Of a stretch of 64,000 nt of DNA, positions 6,222 through 64,000 are shown piece after piece. The notes under the pieces were generated by a model that had not been told where the DNA came from, did not search any database, and worked only from the letters and a program-made list of their open reading frames with translations. The first letter of the stretch is position 1. Every line of letters starts with the position of its first letter. This DNA is from a virus (Duplodnaviria; Caudoviricetes): IMG/VR virus record IMGVR_UViG_3300028048_000112, positions 24,956-88,955 of that record, one strand, 5' to 3'. The translations under genes and the position numbers were made by a program.

Positions 6222-6308
6222 GTGTGATCTCGGAAGTTGAGTTTAACATTGTGTTCTTAGAAAAGACTTTGAATTTATTCGAAGTCTTTTTTTTTCATAA
6301 AAAAAAAA

Positions 6309-6338
6309 TAGGAAGATGGGAGGTATCCCATCTTCCTA
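6309..6338. terminator. Intrinsic terminator hairpin
   Basis: TAGGAAGATGGG-AGGTAT-CCCATCTTCCTA with an 11-nt A-tract on its left. Confidence 0.8.
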
Positions 6339-6342
6339 ATCT

Positions 6343-6394
6343 AAAAAAGAAACTCCCCTACTCACACCCACCTTTCGGCAGGTGCTTTCGGAGA
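6343..6394 (-). repeat. Structured 3' element family 1 (GAAA/GAGUA internal loop plus U-tract), copy A
   Basis: Minus strand: TCTCC-GAAAG-CACCTGCC-GAAA-GGTGGGTG-TGAGTA-GGGGA-GTTTCTTTTTT. Confidence 0.8.
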
Positions 6395-6401
6395 GGCCAG
6401 A

Positions 6402-6695
6402 TTACATTTCCCTAGTTACCTTAAGGAATTTGAATTCGCAATCTGGCGGCAGGGTTGTAGCACCTTCTGGCAGGCGGCCTTTTCTTAGCTGGGCCACGTA
6501 CAGAATTTCTCCAGGTTCTATTTTTACATTGATACGATTGGGCTCATAACCGAACACATGAGCCGTGTCGGCATGTCCAATTGCGGACTCCAATCCTTTT
6601 GGAAATTCTGCAACCTCTTCGATCAAAACGCGAGCAGGAAACTGATCAATCATCTGAAGGCTGAATGCATTGCAAATATAAACTTTCTTTTCCAT
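6402..6695 (-). CDS. acrIII-1: AcrIII-1 family (DUF1874 / STIV B116-like) cA4 ring nuclease, anti-type III CRISPR
   Basis: VYICNAFSLQM, SAIGHADTA (catalytic GH), NRINV, and LYVAQ...RLPEG align with SIRV1 gp29 motifs (VYLANAFSINM / SIGHDST / NRVEI / LYVVQ..RLEEG); AAGGAG SD; early promoter. Confidence 0.88.
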   Translation of the reverse strand: MEKKVYICNAFSLQMIDQFPARVLIEEVAEFPKGLESAIGHADTAHVFGYEPNRINVKIEPGEILYVAQLRKGRLPEGATTLPPDCEFKFLKVTREM

Positions 6696-6788
6696 AATAA
6701 TACTCCTTGGCTACTTTATCCAATGTGGGCCTCGTAACCTGAGGGGTGTATGGTTTTCTCTCCATACCACTTTACTATCTACTATTAT

Positions 6789-6800
6789 TATAATATATAA
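6789..6800 (-). promoter_or_regulatory. Early-type promoter, island head (followed on + by G-rich spacer and TTGAACAGAAA at 6814)
   Basis: Exact TTATATATTATA. Confidence 0.75.
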
Positions 6801-6861
6801 GTGAAAAGGGTGGTTGAACAGAAAATATAAACAGGGCCTTGTGACCCTGTTTATTAATACT

Positions 6862-9078
6862 TTATGCCCAAGCGAAAGATTGTTTGAATAATGAATGAGG
6901 ATCATTAGAAGTATCACGTTTTTCAATAACTTCAGCTTCTTTTTTCTCAGGTTCATCATCATCGAATACATAAGTTCCATCATCTCTGGTTTTACCATAT
7001 TCTGGAGCATCATTAATGTATTCATCAGCAATCTTATCTACAATAATGTCTTCTTCTTTAATCTTAGGAGAAGCATCATAATTTGTTAAATAATCCTCTG
7101 CTCCATAAGAAGTCTCTTCAGTTTCGAAACCACTTTGACCAAGAGCATTATCCATAGCAAGTTTAATTCTGTTTGTTACATGGGCATTATCTCTATCCCT
7201 ATTTCTTAAATCTTTTTCTATAGATTTGAGTTTACCTCTATCGCCAAATACGTAATCCATCATAGCTCTATCAGAACCTCCATAAGCATAATTATTTAAT
7301 TCATCCAATTCTTCTGTAGTATAATTTCCGTCGAGATTAGAATTGAAATAAATCAAATCCATATATTTACTCTTAGATTTACAATACATAATGAACCATC
7401 TACAGTAAAGATATGCTATAAGAAGGTCATCGTGTCCACCGTTTTGTTTATGATCTATACGGCCATTTTTATCGGTAATCAAACCTGCAATTTCGTCAAT
7501 AATTGTTTTATCATGTATCTTATTACCATGCTCAAAGATAGACACACGGATTACATCTCCATACATCAACTTACGCAAATTATGAACCATAGATACACCA
7601 AGACGTTCATCTTTTTCATCTTTGTATATTCTAGATTGACTCATATTTTCTGCAATAATTTCTGTTACAGGCAAACCAGTGTAGTTTCTTTCTGGAATAA
7701 GTACACTCTTTGGAAACAAATATGTTAAAATATATGCAACTGCTCTACCAAAACGTATAATAGAGAACTGATTACATCTCATAGTGAATACAACTTCAGA
7801 ATTAGTAACATCTACACCAACTAATGTAGAAAAGTCTCGTCTATTATTACCAGAACAGTCCATACCAAACACAATGTGATGTGATTGTGAACGTAATAGA
7901 TCGGGATCTCTATAGAACTTACAAACATAAATTCTATCAACCATGATAATACGTACTGGATCCATACCAGTTTTCATAAGTTCTTGAATACGTTCCTGAC
8001 CCAATGGGTGGTCACTATTAGAATCTGTCCAATGGTTAAGAATACCACGTTCAAATTCATCCATACCAGCCATTTCACGTCTTTGTTCTTCAAGATATGT
8101 TTCTGGTTTACCCAACTCATACCATTGGTACTCAATTCTTAAAAAGAATTTACCATGGTTATTATTCTGAATATATTCTTGAACAGCATCTTTATCTATA
8201 CCAATATAATTACCATACTGATCGGTTACAGCGCAATCGTAAAGGAGTTCTGTAAATGGTGCACAATCATTGAAAAACTGATATGCCCATCCACCGCTTT
8301 TAGATTTTTTATTAGCAGCAGTAGTGGTAATAATAATATGGTGATGAGATCCATTACGTTCTGCAGCTTTTGAAACTGTAGAATATGCAGGAATAGCAGC
8401 ACCATACTGTACCCAAATATATGGAATAAAAGCAAACTCATCATACCATTGACCCATAGTAGAAGCACCACGACCTACATTGTTTGCAGATTCTTCATTA
8501 TTGCCTGGACTACGAGTAGTAATAGTATTAGAATATTCACCTGTTCTATAAATAATCGAATGTACGTTATCTGTATCTAAATTGGATTTTAGATTAAGAT
8601 ATGACGGAAGCGATTCTCTAACATCTTTTACACGAGATAAATTCTGTGTTACAAGAGTATCATTCTGTGCAAAAAATGCAGCATTAAAGTTTTTAGCTCC
8701 CCAATATATAATCCAAGAATAAAAACAAGCAACTGTATAAGATTTATAACACTGACGAGGAATAACTACATATGAGTGCAAGTCATTTATCAATGTCCAT
8801 AAAATTGCCAATGTTGCTCTAGTTAATTCAAAATCCAGTTTAATATCAGTCATTGGAATTTTGACTATTTCTCGGAAATAATACCAAGGATTTTTACTTA
8901 TTTCTATATGAACTCTAAGTTTTTGTTCGTTTGTTAAAGAATCTTCGTCTAATGGATCAATATCTAACAAAGTTTCATCATAAAGCTGTAAAAAGAATGT
9001 ATTATTTTTAATTCCCATTTCTTTGAGAATATAATGCATTCTTAAGAACGAAACGTTCTTTGTATTGTATTGTAGCAT
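6862..9078 (-). CDS. terL: Terminase large subunit
   Basis: PRQCYKS Walker A-like, QWYDEFAF Walker B, ITTTA coupling motif, RNase H-like FGMDCSG / IPERN / HDDLLIA. Confidence 0.9.
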   Translation of the reverse strand: MLQYNTKNVSFLRMHYILKEMGIKNNTFFLQLYDETLLDIDPLDEDSLTNEQKLRVHIEISKNPWYYFREIVKIPMTDIKLDFELTRATLAILWTLINDLHSYVVIPRQCYKSYTVACFYSWIIYWGAKNFNAAFFAQNDTLVTQNLSRVKDVRESLPSYLNLKSNLDTDNVHSIIYRTGEYSNTITTRSPGNNEESANNVGRGASTMGQWYDEFAFIPYIWVQYGAAIPAYSTVSKAAERNGSHHHIIITTTAANKKSKSGGWAYQFFNDCAPFTELLYDCAVTDQYGNYIGIDKDAVQEYIQNNNHGKFFLRIEYQWYELGKPETYLEEQRREMAGMDEFERGILNHWTDSNSDHPLGQERIQELMKTGMDPVRIIMVDRIYVCKFYRDPDLLRSQSHHIVFGMDCSGNNRRDFSTLVGVDVTNSEVVFTMRCNQFSIIRFGRAVAYILTYLFPKSVLIPERNYTGLPVTEIIAENMSQSRIYKDEKDERLGVSMVHNLRKLMYGDVIRVSIFEHGNKIHDKTIIDEIAGLITDKNGRIDHKQNGGHDDLLIAYLYCRWFIMYCKSKSKYMDLIYFNSNLDGNYTTEELDELNNYAYGGSDRAMMDYVFGDRGKLKSIEKDLRNRDRDNAHVTNRIKLAMDNALGQSGFETEETSYGAEDYLTNYDASPKIKEEDIIVDKIADEYINDAPEYGKTRDDGTYVFDDDEPEKKEAEVIEKRDTSNDPHSLFKQSFAWA

Positions 9079-30096: not shown

Positions 30097-30636
30097 TTAA
30101 TGATTGTGAATATATAAATCTTTTCTATATAAAGCACTTTTGCATCTACAGATATTCCACCATTCATTCATTTCTTTCTGATCATCTTCTGTAAATGTCA
30201 TGCCAGATAACATTATAGCTTCATCTTGATCTATAGTACCTTTTCCTAATTTAGTCATAATAGATTTTTTCAACCATTCATCTTCTAGTTTCATTATAGT
30301 AACAAAATTCTTTAAAGTTATGAACCTAGAAAAGTTTTTTCTAAAATATCGTCGATATTTATTAAATTTAAGAACTAGATCTTTATTAGATTCGTAATAT
30401 TTTTTGGACCGTTCAAGATATTTGTCTTTATGAGTTTCACGATAATTTTTACAATATTCTCTTTTCTCTTCCTTATGATTCTCATAATACTTTTTACAAT
30501 ATTTCTTATTATACTCTTTATAAATCTCGCGATATTTTTTTCTGTCTTCTTTATGAGATTCACGATAATTTTTATAATAATCTTTATGAGTCTCATAATG
30601 CTTCTTCCAATATTCTCTTTTCTCTTCATTATTCAT
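30097..30636 (-). CDS. Basic repeat protein (K-Y-Y/R-E-x-H-K repeats), paralog 1
   Basis: Start MNNEEK after AAGGAG; C-terminal ~80 aa near-identical to 30749..31303. Confidence 0.8.
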   Translation of the reverse strand: MNNEEKREYWKKHYETHKDYYKNYRESHKEDRKKYREIYKEYNKKYCKKYYENHKEEKREYCKNYRETHKDKYLERSKKYYESNKDLVLKFNKYRRYFRKNFSRFITLKNFVTIMKLEDEWLKKSIMTKLGKGTIDQDEAIMLSGMTFTEDDQKEMNEWWNICRCKSALYRKDLYIHNH

Positions 30637-30687
30637 CTCCAATACTCCTTTTGAGCAGGTTTGATTTTTTTTTATCCTACTCATTAA

Positions 30688-30748: not shown

Positions 30749-31303
30749 TTAAGAAAAAGCGCTTTTACATCTACAGATGTTCCACCATTCATTCATTTCT
30801 TTCTGATCATCTTCTGTAAATGTCATGCCAGATAACATTATAGCTTCATCTTGATCTATAGTACCTTTTCCTAATTTAGTCATAATAGAACGTTTCAACC
30901 ATTCATCTTCCAGTTTCATTATAGTAACAAAATTCTTTAAAGTTATGAACCTAGAAAAGTTTTTTCTAAAATATCGTCGATATTTATTAAATTTGAGAAT
31001 TTGATCTCTATGAGATTCACGATATTTTTTAGCTTGTTCTTTTTGCTTTTCGCTACGATTCTCATAATACTTTTTATAATGGTCTTTATGAGCCTCGTAA
31101 TATTTTTTAGCTTTGGCTTTTTGATTTTCTTTATGAGTCTCATAATACTCTTTCCAATGTTTCTTCGTATACTCTTTCCTTTCTTCTTTATGAGTCTCAT
31201 AATACTTTTTCCAATGTTTCTTCATATACTCTTTCCTTTCTTCTTTATGAGTCTCATAATACTTTTTCTGGTATTCTTTGTTCTTTTCCTTATCCTTAAT
31301 CAT
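30749..31303 (-). CDS. Basic repeat protein, paralog 2
   Basis: KKYYETHKEERKEY(M/T)KKHW repeats; shared C-terminal domain. Confidence 0.8.
   Translation of the reverse strand: MIKDKEKNKEYQKKYYETHKEERKEYMKKHWKKYYETHKEERKEYTKKHWKEYYETHKENQKAKAKKYYEAHKDHYKKYYENRSEKQKEQAKKYRESHRDQILKFNKYRRYFRKNFSRFITLKNFVTIMKLEDEWLKRSIMTKLGKGTIDQDEAIMLSGMTFTEDDQKEMNEWWNICRCKSAFS
31130..31263 (-). repeat. 57-bp tandem repeat (about 2.3 units) encoding 19-aa units
   Basis: TTTATGAGTCTCATAATACT starts at 31130, 31187 and 31244. Confidence 0.9.
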
Positions 31304-31355
31304 ATATTTAATACTCCTTTTGAATAGGTTTGGATTTTATTTTCCTATTCATTAA

Positions 31356-31367
31356 TATAATATATAA
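31356..31367 (-). promoter_or_regulatory. Early-type promoter
   Basis: Exact motif. Confidence 0.75.
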
Positions 31368-31376
31368 CTAAAAAAA

Positions 31377-31413
31377 GAAATCCTACTCACACCTTTCGGT
31401 GCTTTCGGATTTC
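31377..31413 (-). repeat. Structured 3' element family 1, copy C
   Basis: Minus strand: GAAATCC-GAAAG-CACC-GAAA-GGTG-TGAGTA-GGATTTC-TTTTTT. Confidence 0.85.
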
Positions 31414-31433
31414 TTTTAGAGACTACTTTTGGA

Positions 31434-31634
31434 TCACCATCCAAATACAACTTTTCTCAATTTAATGAAGAAAGTTTTTACTGTGATCCAAATCTTCTTT
31501 ACCACTCTAACTGGCAAAGAAGATCTTTTGTCAGATGACCAGCTCTCGAGCTCTTCGAGACTGATCGTGTGATACTTACCATTGCGGATGTTATCAGCAA
31601 TGATTTCCGCCAGAACGTTGTTTACCGTATTCAT
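31434..31634 (-). CDS. Small early hypothetical protein (66 aa)
   Basis: Start revised to MNTVNN after AAGAGGT SD. Confidence 0.7.
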   Translation of the reverse strand: MNTVNNVLAEIIADNIRNGKYHTISLEELESWSSDKRSSLPVRVVKKIWITVKTFFIKLRKVVFGW

Positions 31635-31690
31635 ATAATACCTCTTGAAGATAGGGATTGAGATTTTGGTTGTTTCCCCTTCTTCAGTAT

Positions 31691-31702
31691 TATAATATAT
31701 AA
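31691..31702 (-). promoter_or_regulatory. Early-type promoter, island head with poly-G spacer
   Basis: Exact motif followed on + by GT-G10-A-TTGAACAGAAA. Confidence 0.75.
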
Positions 31703-31772
31703 GTGGGGGGGGGGATTGAACAGAAATAAATATAGTGACTCTGGAATAATCCAGAGTCACTTATATGTTAAA

Positions 31773-56639: not shown

Positions 56640-56689
56640 GAAACCGTAGCAATCCGGTACAGAAAACCTCCTAAGAGGTTTTACTGTTT
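56640..56689 (-). repeat. Structured 3' element family 2 (double hairpin plus U-tract), copy 1
   Basis: Minus strand: ACAG-T-AAAACCTC-TTAG-GAGGTTTT-CTGT-ACCG-GATTGCTA-CGGT-TTCTTTTTTT. Confidence 0.85.
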
Positions 56690-58504: not shown

Positions 58505-58691
58505 TATCGGTTTCCTCCTTTTTATGATCATCGACAAATTTACCATATTTTAACATACAAACAATCCAGTCCAATTCTTCTCTAGAAATATTTAATTTTA
58601 TTCTAGTAGAAAGATTTGAACTGGATTTATTCTGTATTCCGACTAGATAACCAATAAGTCTCGCATCAAACTCGGAATTAGTAGAACTCAT
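58470..58691 (-). CDS. Small protein translationally coupled to the RNAP subunit
   Basis: ATGA-type overlap with the stop of 58688..60808. Confidence 0.6.
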   Translation of the reverse strand: MSSTNSEFDARLIGYLVGIQNKSSSNLSTRIKLNISREELDWIVCMLKYGKFVDDHKKEETDNGNDVGFARNN

Positions 58692-60808
58692 ATTATCTTT
58701 CCTTTCTTTAAAGCCTTTCTCATATATGAGAAATCGTGCTTTACAGAAGTCTTAAACAATGAGTCATGTATACCTTCTCCGATACTAGGATCCTTGTAGA
58801 AAGAATCTATATCTTTGAACAATTTTGTAAGTTCCTGATAAATGAGTGCTGAATATAAATCGCCCTTAAATATAGATGTTTTAAGGTTTATAACATTCAA
58901 CTTAACATCCTTTTTACTGAAATCAGGACGTTTCATCACATTATCTGGACATCTTGTTAAAGCATATATTGCAGGTTCTATAAAGACCATTTCTTTATCT
59001 TTCAAACCAGCTTCGATAATAAGATTTGTAAAATCTCTAATAGGTTCATCAAGATTATCGTACCATGTTGGCTTAGCACGTTCTATAATATTCTTGAGAT
59101 TCTTCAGATACCTAGAAGTTTCTGCAGTAATATATTTGACATTAAATACTGCTGTTCCAGGTTTAATATCTTCAAGATGTAATATAGCTTGATCTGAATC
59201 AATAGGAATTTCAATCTTCTTAATAGAACTAAGATTCATCATCTCTTCAGATAAAGTCAAGAAAGAACCATCGAATTTGATTTCTGTAACAACTTCGTTT
59301 TCCTCTTCAGTCATTTCGTCATAAGTTTTAACGACTAATGAAACATCAGAAAGCATTTTAGAAACCAATGATGAACCATCGGTTTCTCCATCATCTTCAT
59401 CGCCATTGTCATATTCATCGTTATTCAAACGATCAAGAACGTCTTCGATATATTCCTTATTGAAAATCAAGGAGACTTTTTCTGGGCCATGCATAGGTTT
59501 TAGAACAAGTCTAGATTCTACAATAGAGAAATATGTTAGCAATTCTGGATTATCGAACTCTTTTGTTTTTGTACCAGAGTGATGTTTTACTGCCATAACA
59601 GCATTAGACAATGGATTCTGAACTTCGGTACTTGTAGCTCCACCAATCATATATTCATCTTTAAAATCTTTTGGTGATCCATAACATGCTTTACATACAT
59701 GATGTCTGTCAGGATGCGCACAGCAACACATACTTCTTAACCGTATAGTAGTACCAATAAGATCTTTATCGTTCTTTGTTACAGATTTCAATTTACCATT
59801 AGGAAGAATCATATTCTTTCCAACAATAAAATTCAAATGCTTTTCGCTTTCGACTTCATAATTGATGTAATTAGGGGTTCCACAATCTTCCATATTGTAA
59901 TCAATCTTTAAGAACATTCCAGAAAGATTTGTCTCTCTAGACATATATCCAGACACACCAACATAATTCTTTTTATAGAACAATGCTTTAGAAGCAATTT
60001 CTGCTTCAGCAATATAGTCACCAACATTCTGAAGACCATTAAGATAAGAAGTTTTCATAACGTGATTCATAACAACATTAGAAGAACTCATACGTGGTCC
60101 TACAGCTACAAGCAACTGCGTAAGCTGTTGTTCATTAATACAATTAGAATCGATAAATGGAACAAGACATGATCTACCATCAGAAACTATAACCTCTTTA
60201 AGTTTCTTACCATCTTCAACCAATTCGTTTTCAATCTGATGAAAAGATTTTGTTGTATCAAGTTGTGTAGATAGCAATTTATTAAACTTGTCATTACGAT
60301 GACAGAATTCTGAAAGATCGAAAAGCGAAATAGTAGGTGCAGCTATAAGAGAAAGTGTCTCTGTAAGCTTAGTCATTCTTTCAGTAAGGTTAGAAAGTAT
60401 CCAAGAGAATACTCTTTTAGAATTAAGTTTCTTTTTCTTGATAATAGGATATATCTTATTCTGACACATATTATCGATATAGGAATGATAGGACTTCAAA
60501 AATTCTTTATCAACATCAATGAGCCAATCCTTAGTAATAGGAATTTTATACATAAAATTAAATTCAAGAAAGTACAAATTGATTAAGAATTGAAATAATG
60601 TTATATGATATTCTTCATTATTCTCATCAAAAATTGTAACATTATTTTCCATGCGCTTATAATCATCGAGCATATAATTCGTAATAAACTCACAAAAGAG
60701 ATCATAATCATATTTTGTGGTAAAATTTTCATGAATATTTTTAAGTTGTAATTCAAGTTGTCCCTTATATAGGGACTGTACAAGTTCATTTGTTTGAAAA
60801 GAAATCAT
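58688..60808 (-). CDS. rpoC: Split multisubunit RNA polymerase, beta'-C-terminal subunit (probably non-virion RNAP)
   Basis: Bridge helix GL...SGYMSR; Zn site DCG...LRSMCCC...VCKACYG; trigger-loop-like QNPLSNAVMAVKHH; no NADFDGD in this ORF, so a split subunit. Confidence 0.85.
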   Translation of the reverse strand: MISFQTNELVQSLYKGQLELQLKNIHENFTTKYDYDLFCEFITNYMLDDYKRMENNVTIFDENNEEYHITLFQFLINLYFLEFNFMYKIPITKDWLIDVDKEFLKSYHSYIDNMCQNKIYPIIKKKKLNSKRVFSWILSNLTERMTKLTETLSLIAAPTISLFDLSEFCHRNDKFNKLLSTQLDTTKSFHQIENELVEDGKKLKEVIVSDGRSCLVPFIDSNCINEQQLTQLLVAVGPRMSSSNVVMNHVMKTSYLNGLQNVGDYIAEAEIASKALFYKKNYVGVSGYMSRETNLSGMFLKIDYNMEDCGTPNYINYEVESEKHLNFIVGKNMILPNGKLKSVTKNDKDLIGTTIRLRSMCCCAHPDRHHVCKACYGSPKDFKDEYMIGGATSTEVQNPLSNAVMAVKHHSGTKTKEFDNPELLTYFSIVESRLVLKPMHGPEKVSLIFNKEYIEDVLDRLNNDEYDNGDEDDGETDGSSLVSKMLSDVSLVVKTYDEMTEEENEVVTEIKFDGSFLTLSEEMMNLSSIKKIEIPIDSDQAILHLEDIKPGTAVFNVKYITAETSRYLKNLKNIIERAKPTWYDNLDEPIRDFTNLIIEAGLKDKEMVFIEPAIYALTRCPDNVMKRPDFSKKDVKLNVINLKTSIFKGDLYSALIYQELTKLFKDIDSFYKDPSIGEGIHDSLFKTSVKHDFSYMRKALKKGKII

Positions 60809-60855
60809 AAGCGTTAAACCTTCCTTAAGTATATTGTTATTGTGTTTATCACTTT

Positions 60856-60867
60856 TAAAATATATAA
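60856..60867 (-). promoter_or_regulatory. Early-type promoter (1 mismatch) upstream of the RNAP subunit
   Basis: TTATATATTTTA. Confidence 0.6.
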
Positions 60868-60886
60868 ATGAAAAAATTACAAAAAA

Positions 60887-60932
60887 AAAATCTTACTCAC
60901 ATCCACCTTTCGGTGGAATGCTTTCGGATTTT
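60887..60932 (-). repeat. Structured 3' element family 1, copy D
   Basis: Minus strand: AAAATCC-GAAAG-CAT-T-CCACC-GAAA-GGTGG-ATG-TGAGTA-AGATTTT-TTTTT. Confidence 0.8.
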
Positions 60933-60949
60933 TAAGAGAACAGCACAGC

Positions 60950-61336
60950 TTATTTATTAGTTAAGCTGAATACCAGTGTCCAGTCACAATAAAATGGAGC
61001 ATCACGTTTGTCATCTTTTTCATATCTTGTGACATAATTCTTAAGATAAGCTTCTTTGTAATCTGGCATGTTTGTCAACATCCAGAATGCACGCTCAATC
61101 CTAGAATATAACGGATCACTAATGAAATCTACTGTTGATAAATTATGAAAACCACATTTGCCTAACACGACTTCCATAAATTGCCTTGTTTCCGCTGGTT
61201 CCAACCTGAACAGAAACTTGTTAATGACACCGATCTCAATAGTAGACCAGTCAAATGTTTTGACCGTTTCTACAAATGCTTTTGCGATCTCTTTAGCGAG
61301 ATCCTCTTCTTTTTCTAACCTTTCTTCGATAGTCAT
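60950..61336 (-). CDS. Early hypothetical protein
   Basis: Start revised to MTIEER after AGGAGGAG. Confidence 0.75.
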   Translation of the reverse strand: MTIEERLEKEEDLAKEIAKAFVETVKTFDWSTIEIGVINKFLFRLEPAETRQFMEVVLGKCGFHNLSTVDFISDPLYSRIERAFWMLTNMPDYKEAYLKNYVTRYEKDDKRDAPFYCDWTLVFSLTNK

Positions 61337-61808: not shown

Positions 61809-61856
61809 AATAATACTCCTTGAACAGGTTTGGATTTTGTTTATCCTGCTCATTAT

Positions 61857-61868
61857 TATAATATATAA
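61857..61868 (-). promoter_or_regulatory. Early-type promoter
   Basis: Exact motif. Confidence 0.75.
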
Positions 61869-62254: not shown

Positions 62255-62296
62255 AATTATTCTCCTTGAGAAAATAGTTTCCCTATTTCTCATTAT

Positions 62297-63113: not shown

Positions 63114-63163
63114 GAAACCATAGCAATCCGGTACAGAAAACCCCTTATGGAGTTTTACTGTTT
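63114..63163 (-). repeat. Structured 3' element family 2, copy 2
   Basis: Minus strand: ACAG-T-AAAACTCC-ATAA-GGGGTTTT-CTGT-ACCG-GATTGCTA-TGGT-TTCTTTT. Confidence 0.85.
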
Positions 63164-63180
63164 TTAAATATGGAGGTTAG

Positions 63181-63631: not shown

Positions 63632-63681
63632 GAAACCGTAGCAATCCGGTACAGAAAACCTCTTAGGAGGTTTTACTGTTT
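63632..63681 (-). repeat. Structured 3' element family 2, copy 3
   Basis: Minus strand: ACAG-T-AAAACCTC-CTAA-GAGGTTTT-CTGT-ACCG-GATTGCTA-CGGT-TTCTTTT. Confidence 0.85.
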
Positions 63682-63690
63682 TCGAAGTGC

Positions 63691-63912
63691 TTACATTTTC
63701 AGCACTTCTTCGACTGGGGTTTCTACCCCATCGACTTGGCATGTGCAATAAATGCACCCACCAAGATCTGGCGGACCAGATATTGTGAGGTCGGCACTTT
63801 CGTGCCACTTCTTAAACTCCTCGACAGATCCCTCGAAAGAGTTCCAAACTCCTTCGTATGTAAGATCATTATACCCGGATACGCCCAATTCATACTTTAC
63901 TGTCTTTGACAT
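63691..63912 (-). CDS. Small acidic early protein with CxxCxC
   Basis: GAGGTG SD; GCIYCTCQ. Confidence 0.75.
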   Translation of the reverse strand: MSKTVKYELGVSGYNDLTYEGVWNSFEGSVEEFKKWHESADLTISGPPDLGGCIYCTCQVDGVETPVEEVLKM

Positions 63913-63982: not shown

Positions 63983-64000
63983 TTGGGGGGGGGGGGGTTT

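Follow-up and report, generated by a model that had tools for sequence, protein, structure and literature searches.

A sarcin-ricin-type internal loop conserved in terminator-like hairpins of early-type transcription units of an uncultured AR9-like jumbo phage

Intrinsic terminators are usually viewed as hairpins free of sequence constraint, and the locus at 6,343 raises the question of why a subset of those in one phage genome should bear what is, judging from its letters, an invariant three-dimensional module of ribosomal type. The window, meaning the whole stretch of 64,000 nucleotides that was analysed, corresponds to bases 24,956-88,955 of an IMG/VR record assessed by CheckV as 32% complete, which puts the genome at about 280 kb. 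The record encodes a terminase and a subunit of a split multisubunit RNA polymerase (RNAP). The RNAP subunit gene (58688-60808) matches phrog_3015 and AR9 gp153, with 27.7% amino acid identity to the non-virion RNAP beta' C-terminal subunit of AR9, and by this subunit the closest cultured relatives are the Bacillus phages AR9 and PBS1, followed by Staphylococcus jumbo phages. The source is an uncultured AR9-like jumbo phage. The window also has a 2180 aa open reading frame (ORF) at 15478-22020 (+), and nine ORFs elsewhere in it (103-1126 aa) are without a Pfam match.

Four copies of a repeated, terminator-linked hairpin, here called A to D, had been proposed in an earlier note. All four are present where it had placed them; the coordinates follow the plus strand and the element is read on the minus strand. 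The four intergenic copies share a single plan, which from 5' to 3' consists of an outer stem, GAAA, an inner stem-loop, GAGUA, the other half of the outer stem and a U-tract. The outer stem is 5-11 bp and the inner stem a variable 5-9 bp, including three loop-adjoining pairs, R-U, C-G and A-U. The two-stem fold that had been claimed is found in 4/4 copies, with folding z-scores of -3.1 to -5.8, and the hairpins are stable (-13 to -24 kcal/mol) and followed within 0-4 nt by a tract containing 6-10 U. GAAA tetraloops cap three copies, as had been described; these are A, C and D, and copy B has AAUA. The change from G-U to A-U reported for copy B likewise holds, the loop-adjoining pair being G-U in the other three.

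Copy A (6343-6397, -) ends a DUF1874/AcrIII-1-like gene. Its hairpin (6353-6395; -24.1 kcal/mol) has a 6 bp outer stem and a 9 bp inner stem, with the GAAA strand of the internal loop at 6386-6389, GAGUA at 6359-6363 and the U-tract at 6343-6352. Copy B (22892-22946, -) follows a 129 aa ORFan, with its hairpin at 22903-22943, GAAA at 22935-22938 and GAGUA at 22908-22912. Copy C (31370-31417, -), after a 66 aa ORFan, is a short form in which the inner stem is CACC/GGUG plus a G-U pair; the outer stem of its hairpin (31373-31417) reaches up to 11 bp, and GAAA and GAGUA lie at 31403-31406 and 31384-31388. Copy D (60878-60933, -) follows a two-gene early unit and immediately precedes the gene for the non-virion RNAP beta' C-terminal subunit. 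In its hairpin (60888-60931; GAAA 60922-60925, GAGUA 60894-60898) the outer closing pair is C.A instead of C-G, which the earlier note did not mention, and one U is bulged from the inner stem.

The recurrence of this arrangement exceeds chance. The pattern CGAAAR-N(4-34)-TGAGTAR matches four times, always on the minus strand, where 0.34 would be expected, and 0/100 shuffles reach four. Two covariance models were built, R1 from 7 copies and R2 from 17, and over the whole 88,955 bp record they recover exactly these four copies at 53-65 bits (R1 scores of 64.4, 59.3, 65.3 and 55 for A to D), with no score between about 20 and 46 bits. When the loop words were permuted in 120 ways across this phage and three relatives, only GAAA/GAGTA recurred in two-stem hairpins (9 matches, against 3 or fewer for any other), and the flipped orientation of the loop had 0 occurrences in the same search.

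The loop is a 4x5 internal loop between canonical pairs in which AGUA stands opposite GAA with a further sheared pair, and it reads GAGUA/GAAA in 17/17 instances of the element, in several of them by construction since the search patterns fixed the loop. For the core A3-G4-U5-A6 / G9-A10-A11, positions 3, 5, 10 and 11 were filled with what we take to be the established letters of the sarcin-ricin motif, and the A.A and U.A pairs within the loop were presumed on the same grounds. Read with this canonical core, the catalogued sarcin-ricin variant #10_U2G/C12A becomes 5'-GAGUA-3'/5'-GAAA-3'. The catalogue, drawn from solved structures, describes 4x5 loops with a bulged G and a U in a base triple, in which the 'upper' pair is A-G trans-Hoogsteen/sugar and the 'lower' one varies (PMC8450098). 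With position 2 occupied by G and position 12 by A, variant #10_U2G/C12A adjoins a G7-C8 flank, combines an A-G upper with a G-A lower trans-Hoogsteen/sugar pair and has been observed in three-dimensional structures; with Mg2+ it was the most stable of four upper-pair variants compared (PMC8450098). The U-A, U-G and C.A flanks also occur in solved sarcin-ricin structures (PMC8450098). The claim that the loop is a bulged-G (sarcin-ricin/loop E) motif is thus supported, since GAGUA/GAAA with a G-C flank corresponds to a 4x5 variant seen in three dimensions (PMC8450098), and at the level of sequence the assignment is well founded. The hairpins themselves would be expected to adopt the sarcin-ricin fold. 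Nearest-neighbour folding counts the loop as open, and for this reason the stability of the hairpins is underestimated.

In Rfam 15, searched in gathering and permissive modes with the window, 3 kb loci and 100 nt slices, no family matched at or above its gathering threshold. The nearest resemblance, below threshold, was to DUF3800-IX, at 15.5 bits where the gathering score is 36.8; in that family, too, a G+C stem has GAA...UA at its base. The 5S rRNA and TEG147 models gave no match even at E<=10.

Several other RNA motifs were considered for the element. By inspection neither strand has the NNN-GA / GA arrangement of a kink-turn. A GNRA tetraloop/receptor was rejected since the inner loop is unconserved (GAAA, AAUA or loops of 6 to 14 nt) and its distance from the module ranges from 2 to 10 bp. 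A decoy of the sarcin-ricin loop was rejected as the module is flipped and set apart from the tetraloop, unlike helix 95. The letters CCGA.../GAGUAGG are, we assume, common to the element and the bacterial 5S rRNA loop E, the L25 site. Mimicry of that site was nevertheless rejected, the loop being 4x5 and not a symmetric run of about seven non-canonical pairs, and the 5S_rRNA model being without a match.

The proposed link to terminators is borne out: the copies sit on the gene strand 6-20 nt past the stop codons of four minus-strand genes, and each continues into its U-tract. The four hairpins would thus be predicted to end transcripts. A census of the record found about 30 clean terminators composed of a hairpin and a U-tract, most with perfect 10-15 bp stems, including those of units under the same promoter class as the sarcin-ricin copies, and GAAA/GAGUA was the only internal loop to recur in the census. 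Because the other terminators, some 30 of them, are plain hairpins, the module appears to be an addition that is dispensable for termination.

Antitermination, which had been suggested for the element, or regulated read-through is an unlikely general role, because a second strong terminator comes 5 nt past copy A and a convergent gene lies beyond. Together with copy A, two further hairpins make a stack of three terminators in this convergent intergenic region, one a perfect hairpin of 13 bp at a distance of 5 nt and the other a terminator for the plus strand (6309-6338 and 6262-6289). A second repeated 3' element was also seen, with three copies on the minus strand (56640-56689, 63118-63173 and 63632-63700); it has a long hairpin (...ACAGTAAAACC-loop-GGTTTTCTGT...), then ACCGGATTGCTA(C/T)GG and a U-tract.

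The position of the U-tract also bears on whether the loop is a processing signal. Internal-loop RNase III sites are known in the early mRNAs of T7 and SP82, and an asymmetric loop could guide RNase III, or an RNase of the phage, to make one endonucleolytic cut through which early transcripts mature or become inactive. An intergenic hairpin in early polycistronic regions, with an asymmetric 4x5 loop and about 15-20 stacked pairs in total, would suit such an enzyme. However, with the U-tract following directly most transcripts should already end at the element, and the short forms are joined by only about 11 Watson-Crick pairs, which makes processing an improbable explanation.

The transcription units that these hairpins close are of early type. 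The record has about 25 copies of TTATATATTATA(A/T)TA, all on the minus strand. The early promoter of AR9, defined experimentally as AAATATATATTAT-(6N)-G(+1), is read by the injected virion RNAP (PMC5312081), and the minus-strand copies here fit the early consensus of that polymerase, TATATATTAT-N6-G(+1) (PMC5312081). On this fit the four elements are placed at the ends of early-type units, the promoters of which would, by analogy with AR9, be read by a virion RNAP. One-gene cassettes end at copies A, B and C, and each of their promoters has a TTTCTGTTCAA element together with a C-rich spacer. The promoter of cassette A (6786-6800, -) has a TTATATATTATAATA core downstream of its TTTCTGTTCAA element and fits the AR9 consensus; in cassette B (23472-23486, -) TTTCTGTTCAA is joined to a C-rich spacer and in cassette C (31688-31702, -) to a C-run. 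The two-gene unit ending at copy D is preceded by an early promoter (61854-61868, -) without the upstream element. Downstream of copies B, C and D a further early promoter core lies within 6-25 nt. Directly past the U-tract of copy B it forms a composite terminator/promoter (22872-22886, -), past that of copy C there is again a promoter core (31353-31367, -), and past copy D, ahead of the RNAP subunit gene, the early-type promoter is degenerate with 2 mismatches (60853-60867, -).

Other features of the early units were seen in passing. In a subset of promoters TTTCTGTT(C)AA lies upstream, with a run of C, or in one case of G, after it (6801-6826, 23487-23511, 31703-31727 and 63983-64000, and 18543-18570 of the record, G000), and units with such promoters own 3/4 of the sarcin-ricin terminators (rough hypergeometric P about 0.02). 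The G of ATGAG appears to be the first base of early transcripts, which fold directly into a hairpin at the 5' end that reaches as far as the Shine-Dalgarno sequence; such hairpins are found at 30652-30683, 31321-31351, 61821-61852, 62267-62292 and elsewhere (-), and their stems covary between units. A tRNA-like gene at 22412-22491 (-; 51 bits with the Rfam tRNA model, 'tRNA-???' with a four-base anticodon 'cccg' by ARAGORN) has its own early promoter (22508-22522), is preceded by a plain terminator and appears to have an extended, GAAA-capped anticodon arm. Two tandem paralogous genes (30097-30684 and 30749-31303, -) share 64.7% amino acid identity, and an early promoter, a 5' hairpin and a plain terminator are present for each gene separately, the two terminators being nearly identical; an entire expression unit has been duplicated.

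The cargo of cassette A (6402-6695, -) is a 97 aa STIV_B116-like/DUF1874 protein, assigned by Pfam, PHROG and PADLOC to the AcrIII-1/Csx16-type ring nuclease family. The Pfam score (PF08960, 25.2 bits, E 1.8e-5) is just below the cut-off of 26; the match to phrog_5063 is at 5.8e-12 and that to PADLOC Csx16 at 1e-4. For the 129 aa protein of cassette B (22963-23352, -), the 66 aa protein of cassette C (31434-31634, -) and the 128 aa product of the last gene ahead of copy D (60950-61336, -) there is no family. Pfam, PHROG, PADLOC and Atlas gave no leads for nine other cargo proteins, and a common function of the genes upstream of the element was rejected, a family being assigned for the gene of copy A only. 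Ahead of cassette A, the terminase gene (6862-9078) is closed by a terminator of its own (6827-6854). In a complete relative, G004, the terminase is followed by a co-oriented 252 aa gene and the cassette is absent, which is consistent with cassette A being an insertion.

Taken with the structure, the placement of the copies suggests a reading that is preferred here tentatively and at a little less than even confidence. The element would be an intrinsic terminator of early units, the sarcin-ricin module of which serves as a docking platform on the finished 3' end of mRNAs from small accessory genes. The stem would be interrupted by the module 5'-GAAA-3'/5'-GAGUA-3', bordered on the inner side by the invariant R-U, C-G and A-U pairs. 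In Mg2+ the nominal 4x5 loop should form an unbroken stacked helix with an S-turn, so that termination at the hairpin is still to be expected. The module would be retained by selection acting on the RNA strand and would offer sequence- and shape-specific docking on the finished 3' ends of a subset of early mRNAs. The marked mRNAs would encode small accessory genes, one of them the AcrIII-1-like ring nuclease, and a phage or host protein bound at the hairpin may protect or mark the transcripts. What had been proposed earlier is upheld in part: the structural reading, the terminator link and the conservation of the loop hold, a 3'-end signal bound by a phage or host factor would be a candidate role with transcript sorting as one possible use, and antitermination as its general role is unlikely.

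Further instances were sought with pattern scans of IMG/VR, restricted to exact patterns, followed by filtering with the covariance models. This gave 17 instances in all, mostly from a clade of uncultured jumbo phages. G001, which is 94-96% identical in nucleotides to the first 31.8 kb of this record, has one copy. Fragments of phages of about 280 kb have one (G002, 90 kb), three (G003, 130 kb), two (G005, 195 kb) and one (G006, 122 kb), a 4.7 kb contig (G009) has one, and two complete small phages (G007 and G008) have one each. Among the matches listed, the bacterial copies that pass the model are one in a candidate-phyla-radiation metagenome-assembled genome (MAG), after a methyltransferase-like gene, and one in a Spirochaetia MAG. 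A host signal in bacterial genomes was rejected, pattern matches there being mostly chance and, among the matches listed, these two MAGs alone passing the model. About 300 other sampled candidate-phyla-radiation genomes had no copy, and a metagenome scan with the 23 nt short form returned the known contigs and one close relative of G002 only. No copy was found in G004 (99% complete, 276 kb; 62-69% amino acid identity in RNAP and terminase), in the G004-like fragments G162 and G163 or in the cultured phages AR9, vB_BpuM-BpSp, Internexus and Staphylococcus phages S6 and LY01, where the best score was 25 bits. The element family is rare in the collections searched, although, with the candidate-phyla-radiation copy, terminators of this kind may make up a broader class that is thinly scattered.

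Two of the instances, in G006 (locus L199, 18077-18121) and G008 (locus L200, 19789-19834), are in a leader or short RNA and not after an ORF. At these loci the hairpin and U-tract come soon after a promoter-like sequence, either before a Shine-Dalgarno sequence and start codon or ending a short non-coding stretch. The hairpin may act there as a leader attenuator or a small RNA. Such placement would be expected of a portable RNA module more than of a signal tied to particular genes.

Conservation of the loop in other genomes, which had been set beforehand as the test of its importance, was found: it is kept in both homologous and non-homologous elements of related phages. In the alignment of 17 sequences, whose numbers lean towards structure because it was fitted to the model and its members were in part found by pattern, 95.6% of helix positions are paired, 8/11 pairs have double-sided changes and the covariation score is 0.654, compared with 0.20 in shuffles (0/500 reach it) and 0.164 or less with slid partners. 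Observations that are independent of the search pattern carry more weight. Between the near-identical G000 and G001 the inner stem of copy A is longer by 4 perfectly paired bp in G000 and the loop is untouched. One of the G003 copies has a U-A outer closing pair, an 8 bp G+C inner stem and a 7 nt loop around the same module. The loop-adjoining C-G and A-U pairs are invariant in the 9 copies of G000-G003, at positions that the search left unconstrained. A scan for an inner hairpin and T-run with the loop left free found only sarcin-ricin hairpins (3) or fully paired ones (10), and near-variant or degenerate loops were found neither there nor in the terminator census nor by R1 and R2 over the whole record.

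These conserved pairs are what most clearly separate docking from a purely structural role. The module could simply be a rigid, Mg2+-stabilised insert that gives a long 3' hairpin resistant to exonucleases and RNase III and interrupts what would otherwise be a DNA repeat, with no partner at all. The GAGUA/GAAA variant is indeed thermodynamically stable in duplexes (PMC8450098), the element is always within a terminator-like hairpin, and low copy number with absence from close relatives would be expected of an optional stabiliser. Against this, perfect 12-15 bp hairpin terminators work in the same genome, and neither the three invariant loop-adjoining pairs nor the fixed orientation is needed by structure as such. 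Flanking pairs vary freely in the sarcin-ricin motifs of rRNA, so a purely structural insert should not need fixed ones. A structural role without a partner is accordingly thought unlikely, though it keeps a sizeable minority share of belief.

The module probably has a role beyond ending transcripts, since it persists in related phages whose stems have changed. A sequence- and shape-specific reader is indicated instead, because the module appears dispensable for termination, the adjoining pairs are fixed and the orientation to the U-tract is fixed. The most economical such reader would be a protein docking on the completed 3' hairpin. The invariance of the C-G and A-U pairs would point to a reader of sequence and not of the fold alone. 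We infer the existence of such a binding partner, and its role, from these features. Since G004 and the cultured AR9-type phages are without a copy, any partner would not serve a core function.

The element belongs, too, to a set of exchangeable parts. G000 and G003 share almost no DNA, and nearly all the stretches they do share are promoters, 5' leaders and terminators. Cassette C (31353-31730, -) and a cassette of G003 (105835-106276) have a 101 nt promoter/leader module that is 90% identical and a 68 nt terminator/next-promoter module that is 94% identical. The ORFs between these matching flanks are unrelated: that of G000 encodes 66 aa, and that of G003 a small hydrophobic product which is probably a membrane protein. 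With a different G003 copy, copy C has 100% identity across 43 nt. Some copies are thus probably related by recent copying or exchange, which inflates the apparent conservation. By sequence comparison the module is one of the clade's conserved, exchangeable promoter/terminator parts in early cassettes, an aspect that the earlier note had not seen.

Such exchange may be a partial alternative reason for the sequence conservation and may account for part of the identity between copies. Carried further, it would make the element a hitch-hiking part, a composite terminator/promoter family spread and homogenised by recombination among co-infecting phages, with the loop kept through recent descent. 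The matching flanks around unrelated ORFs, the confinement of similarity to expression signals and the precedent of the PeSL cassettes of T4-type phages (PMC2839356, PMC4122927) all favour this. However, copying and exchange leave unexplained that the stems have diverged widely with compensatory changes and the 9 loop nucleotides and 3 pairs have not changed, that no decayed versions were found in the scans described above, and that the loop matches exactly a textbook three-dimensional motif, which would not be a product of drift. Instances in unrelated small phages and in a candidate-phyla-radiation bacterium also speak against it, and hitch-hiking is distinctly unlikely as the reason for the loop.

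The presence of the element at cassette boundaries with swapped cargo could further suggest a DNA-level site for protein binding or recombination, for example a single-stranded DNA hairpin like the attC sites of integrons. This is very improbable. The fold is specific to the transcribed sense strand because of its G-U pairs, the antisense fold being weaker (for copy C, -13.2 kcal/mol for sense and -8.3 kcal/mol for antisense). The U-tract is always downstream, the loop is a textbook RNA motif and no recombinase context was seen.

In a wider form of the docking reading, the sarcin-ricin terminator would serve as an address label for a hitherto undescribed post-transcriptional system of AR9-like jumbo phages. 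A dedicated phage or host protein would read GAAARCA/UGUGAGUA on the 3' hairpin and selectively protect, time or localise mRNAs from exchangeable early accessory (anti-defence) cassettes, the label being reused sporadically in other phages and a few bacteria. This is a doubtful extension, for which confidence is low. An antisense partner for UGUGAGUA was looked for as well and was rejected, as the complement TACTCACA is found only within the elements themselves. The retention of the module through stem turnover in a giant-phage clade, although it appears dispensable for termination, makes it a compact candidate for a 3'-end recognition signal on early phage mRNAs, and at least one of the mRNAs with this candidate signal encodes, by family assignment from sequence, an anti-CRISPR-type enzyme.

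In comparison with known systems, the copies resemble intrinsic terminators in their G+C-containing hairpin, directly adjoining U-tract, placement after stop codons and, often, an A-run on the 5' side. Ordinary terminators have uninterrupted stems of arbitrary sequence, whereas here the stem is split by a fixed 4x5 module of non-Watson-Crick pairs and three fixed pairs. Between the loop of this phage and sarcin-ricin loops of the rRNA type the loop letters, 4x5 size, G-C flank and canonical flanks are the same. Sarcin-ricin instances are known in rRNAs, RNase P, the HCV IRES and the raiA, ROOL, RAGATH-18 and Dictyoglomi-1 RNAs (PMC13085918). None of the known instances is listed within a transcription terminator, unlike the copies in this phage, and the text of a recent Rfam survey of the motif mentions neither terminators nor phages (PMC13085918). 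A small family absent from Rfam may be added to the RNAs that use the sarcin-ricin module.

The early units of AR9 are alike in the promoter, TATATATTAT-N6-G(+1), and in being many and short (PMC5312081), although AR9 itself does not have the element. The PeSL cassettes of T4-type phages combine a composite terminator/early promoter and conserved modules with swapped, unrelated small genes (PMC2839356, PMC4122927). Like the parts described here, they join a terminator stem-loop to an early promoter, are repeated in the genome and flank unrelated genes in related phages. However, a conserved internal-loop motif has not been reported for the PeSL stem-loops, and their promoter is of the sigma-70 type, whereas this phage belongs to another lineage with split multisubunit RNAP genes and a promoter of the AR9 virion RNAP type. 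PeSL-like exchangeable promoter/terminator parts thus exist in AR9-like jumbo phages as well.
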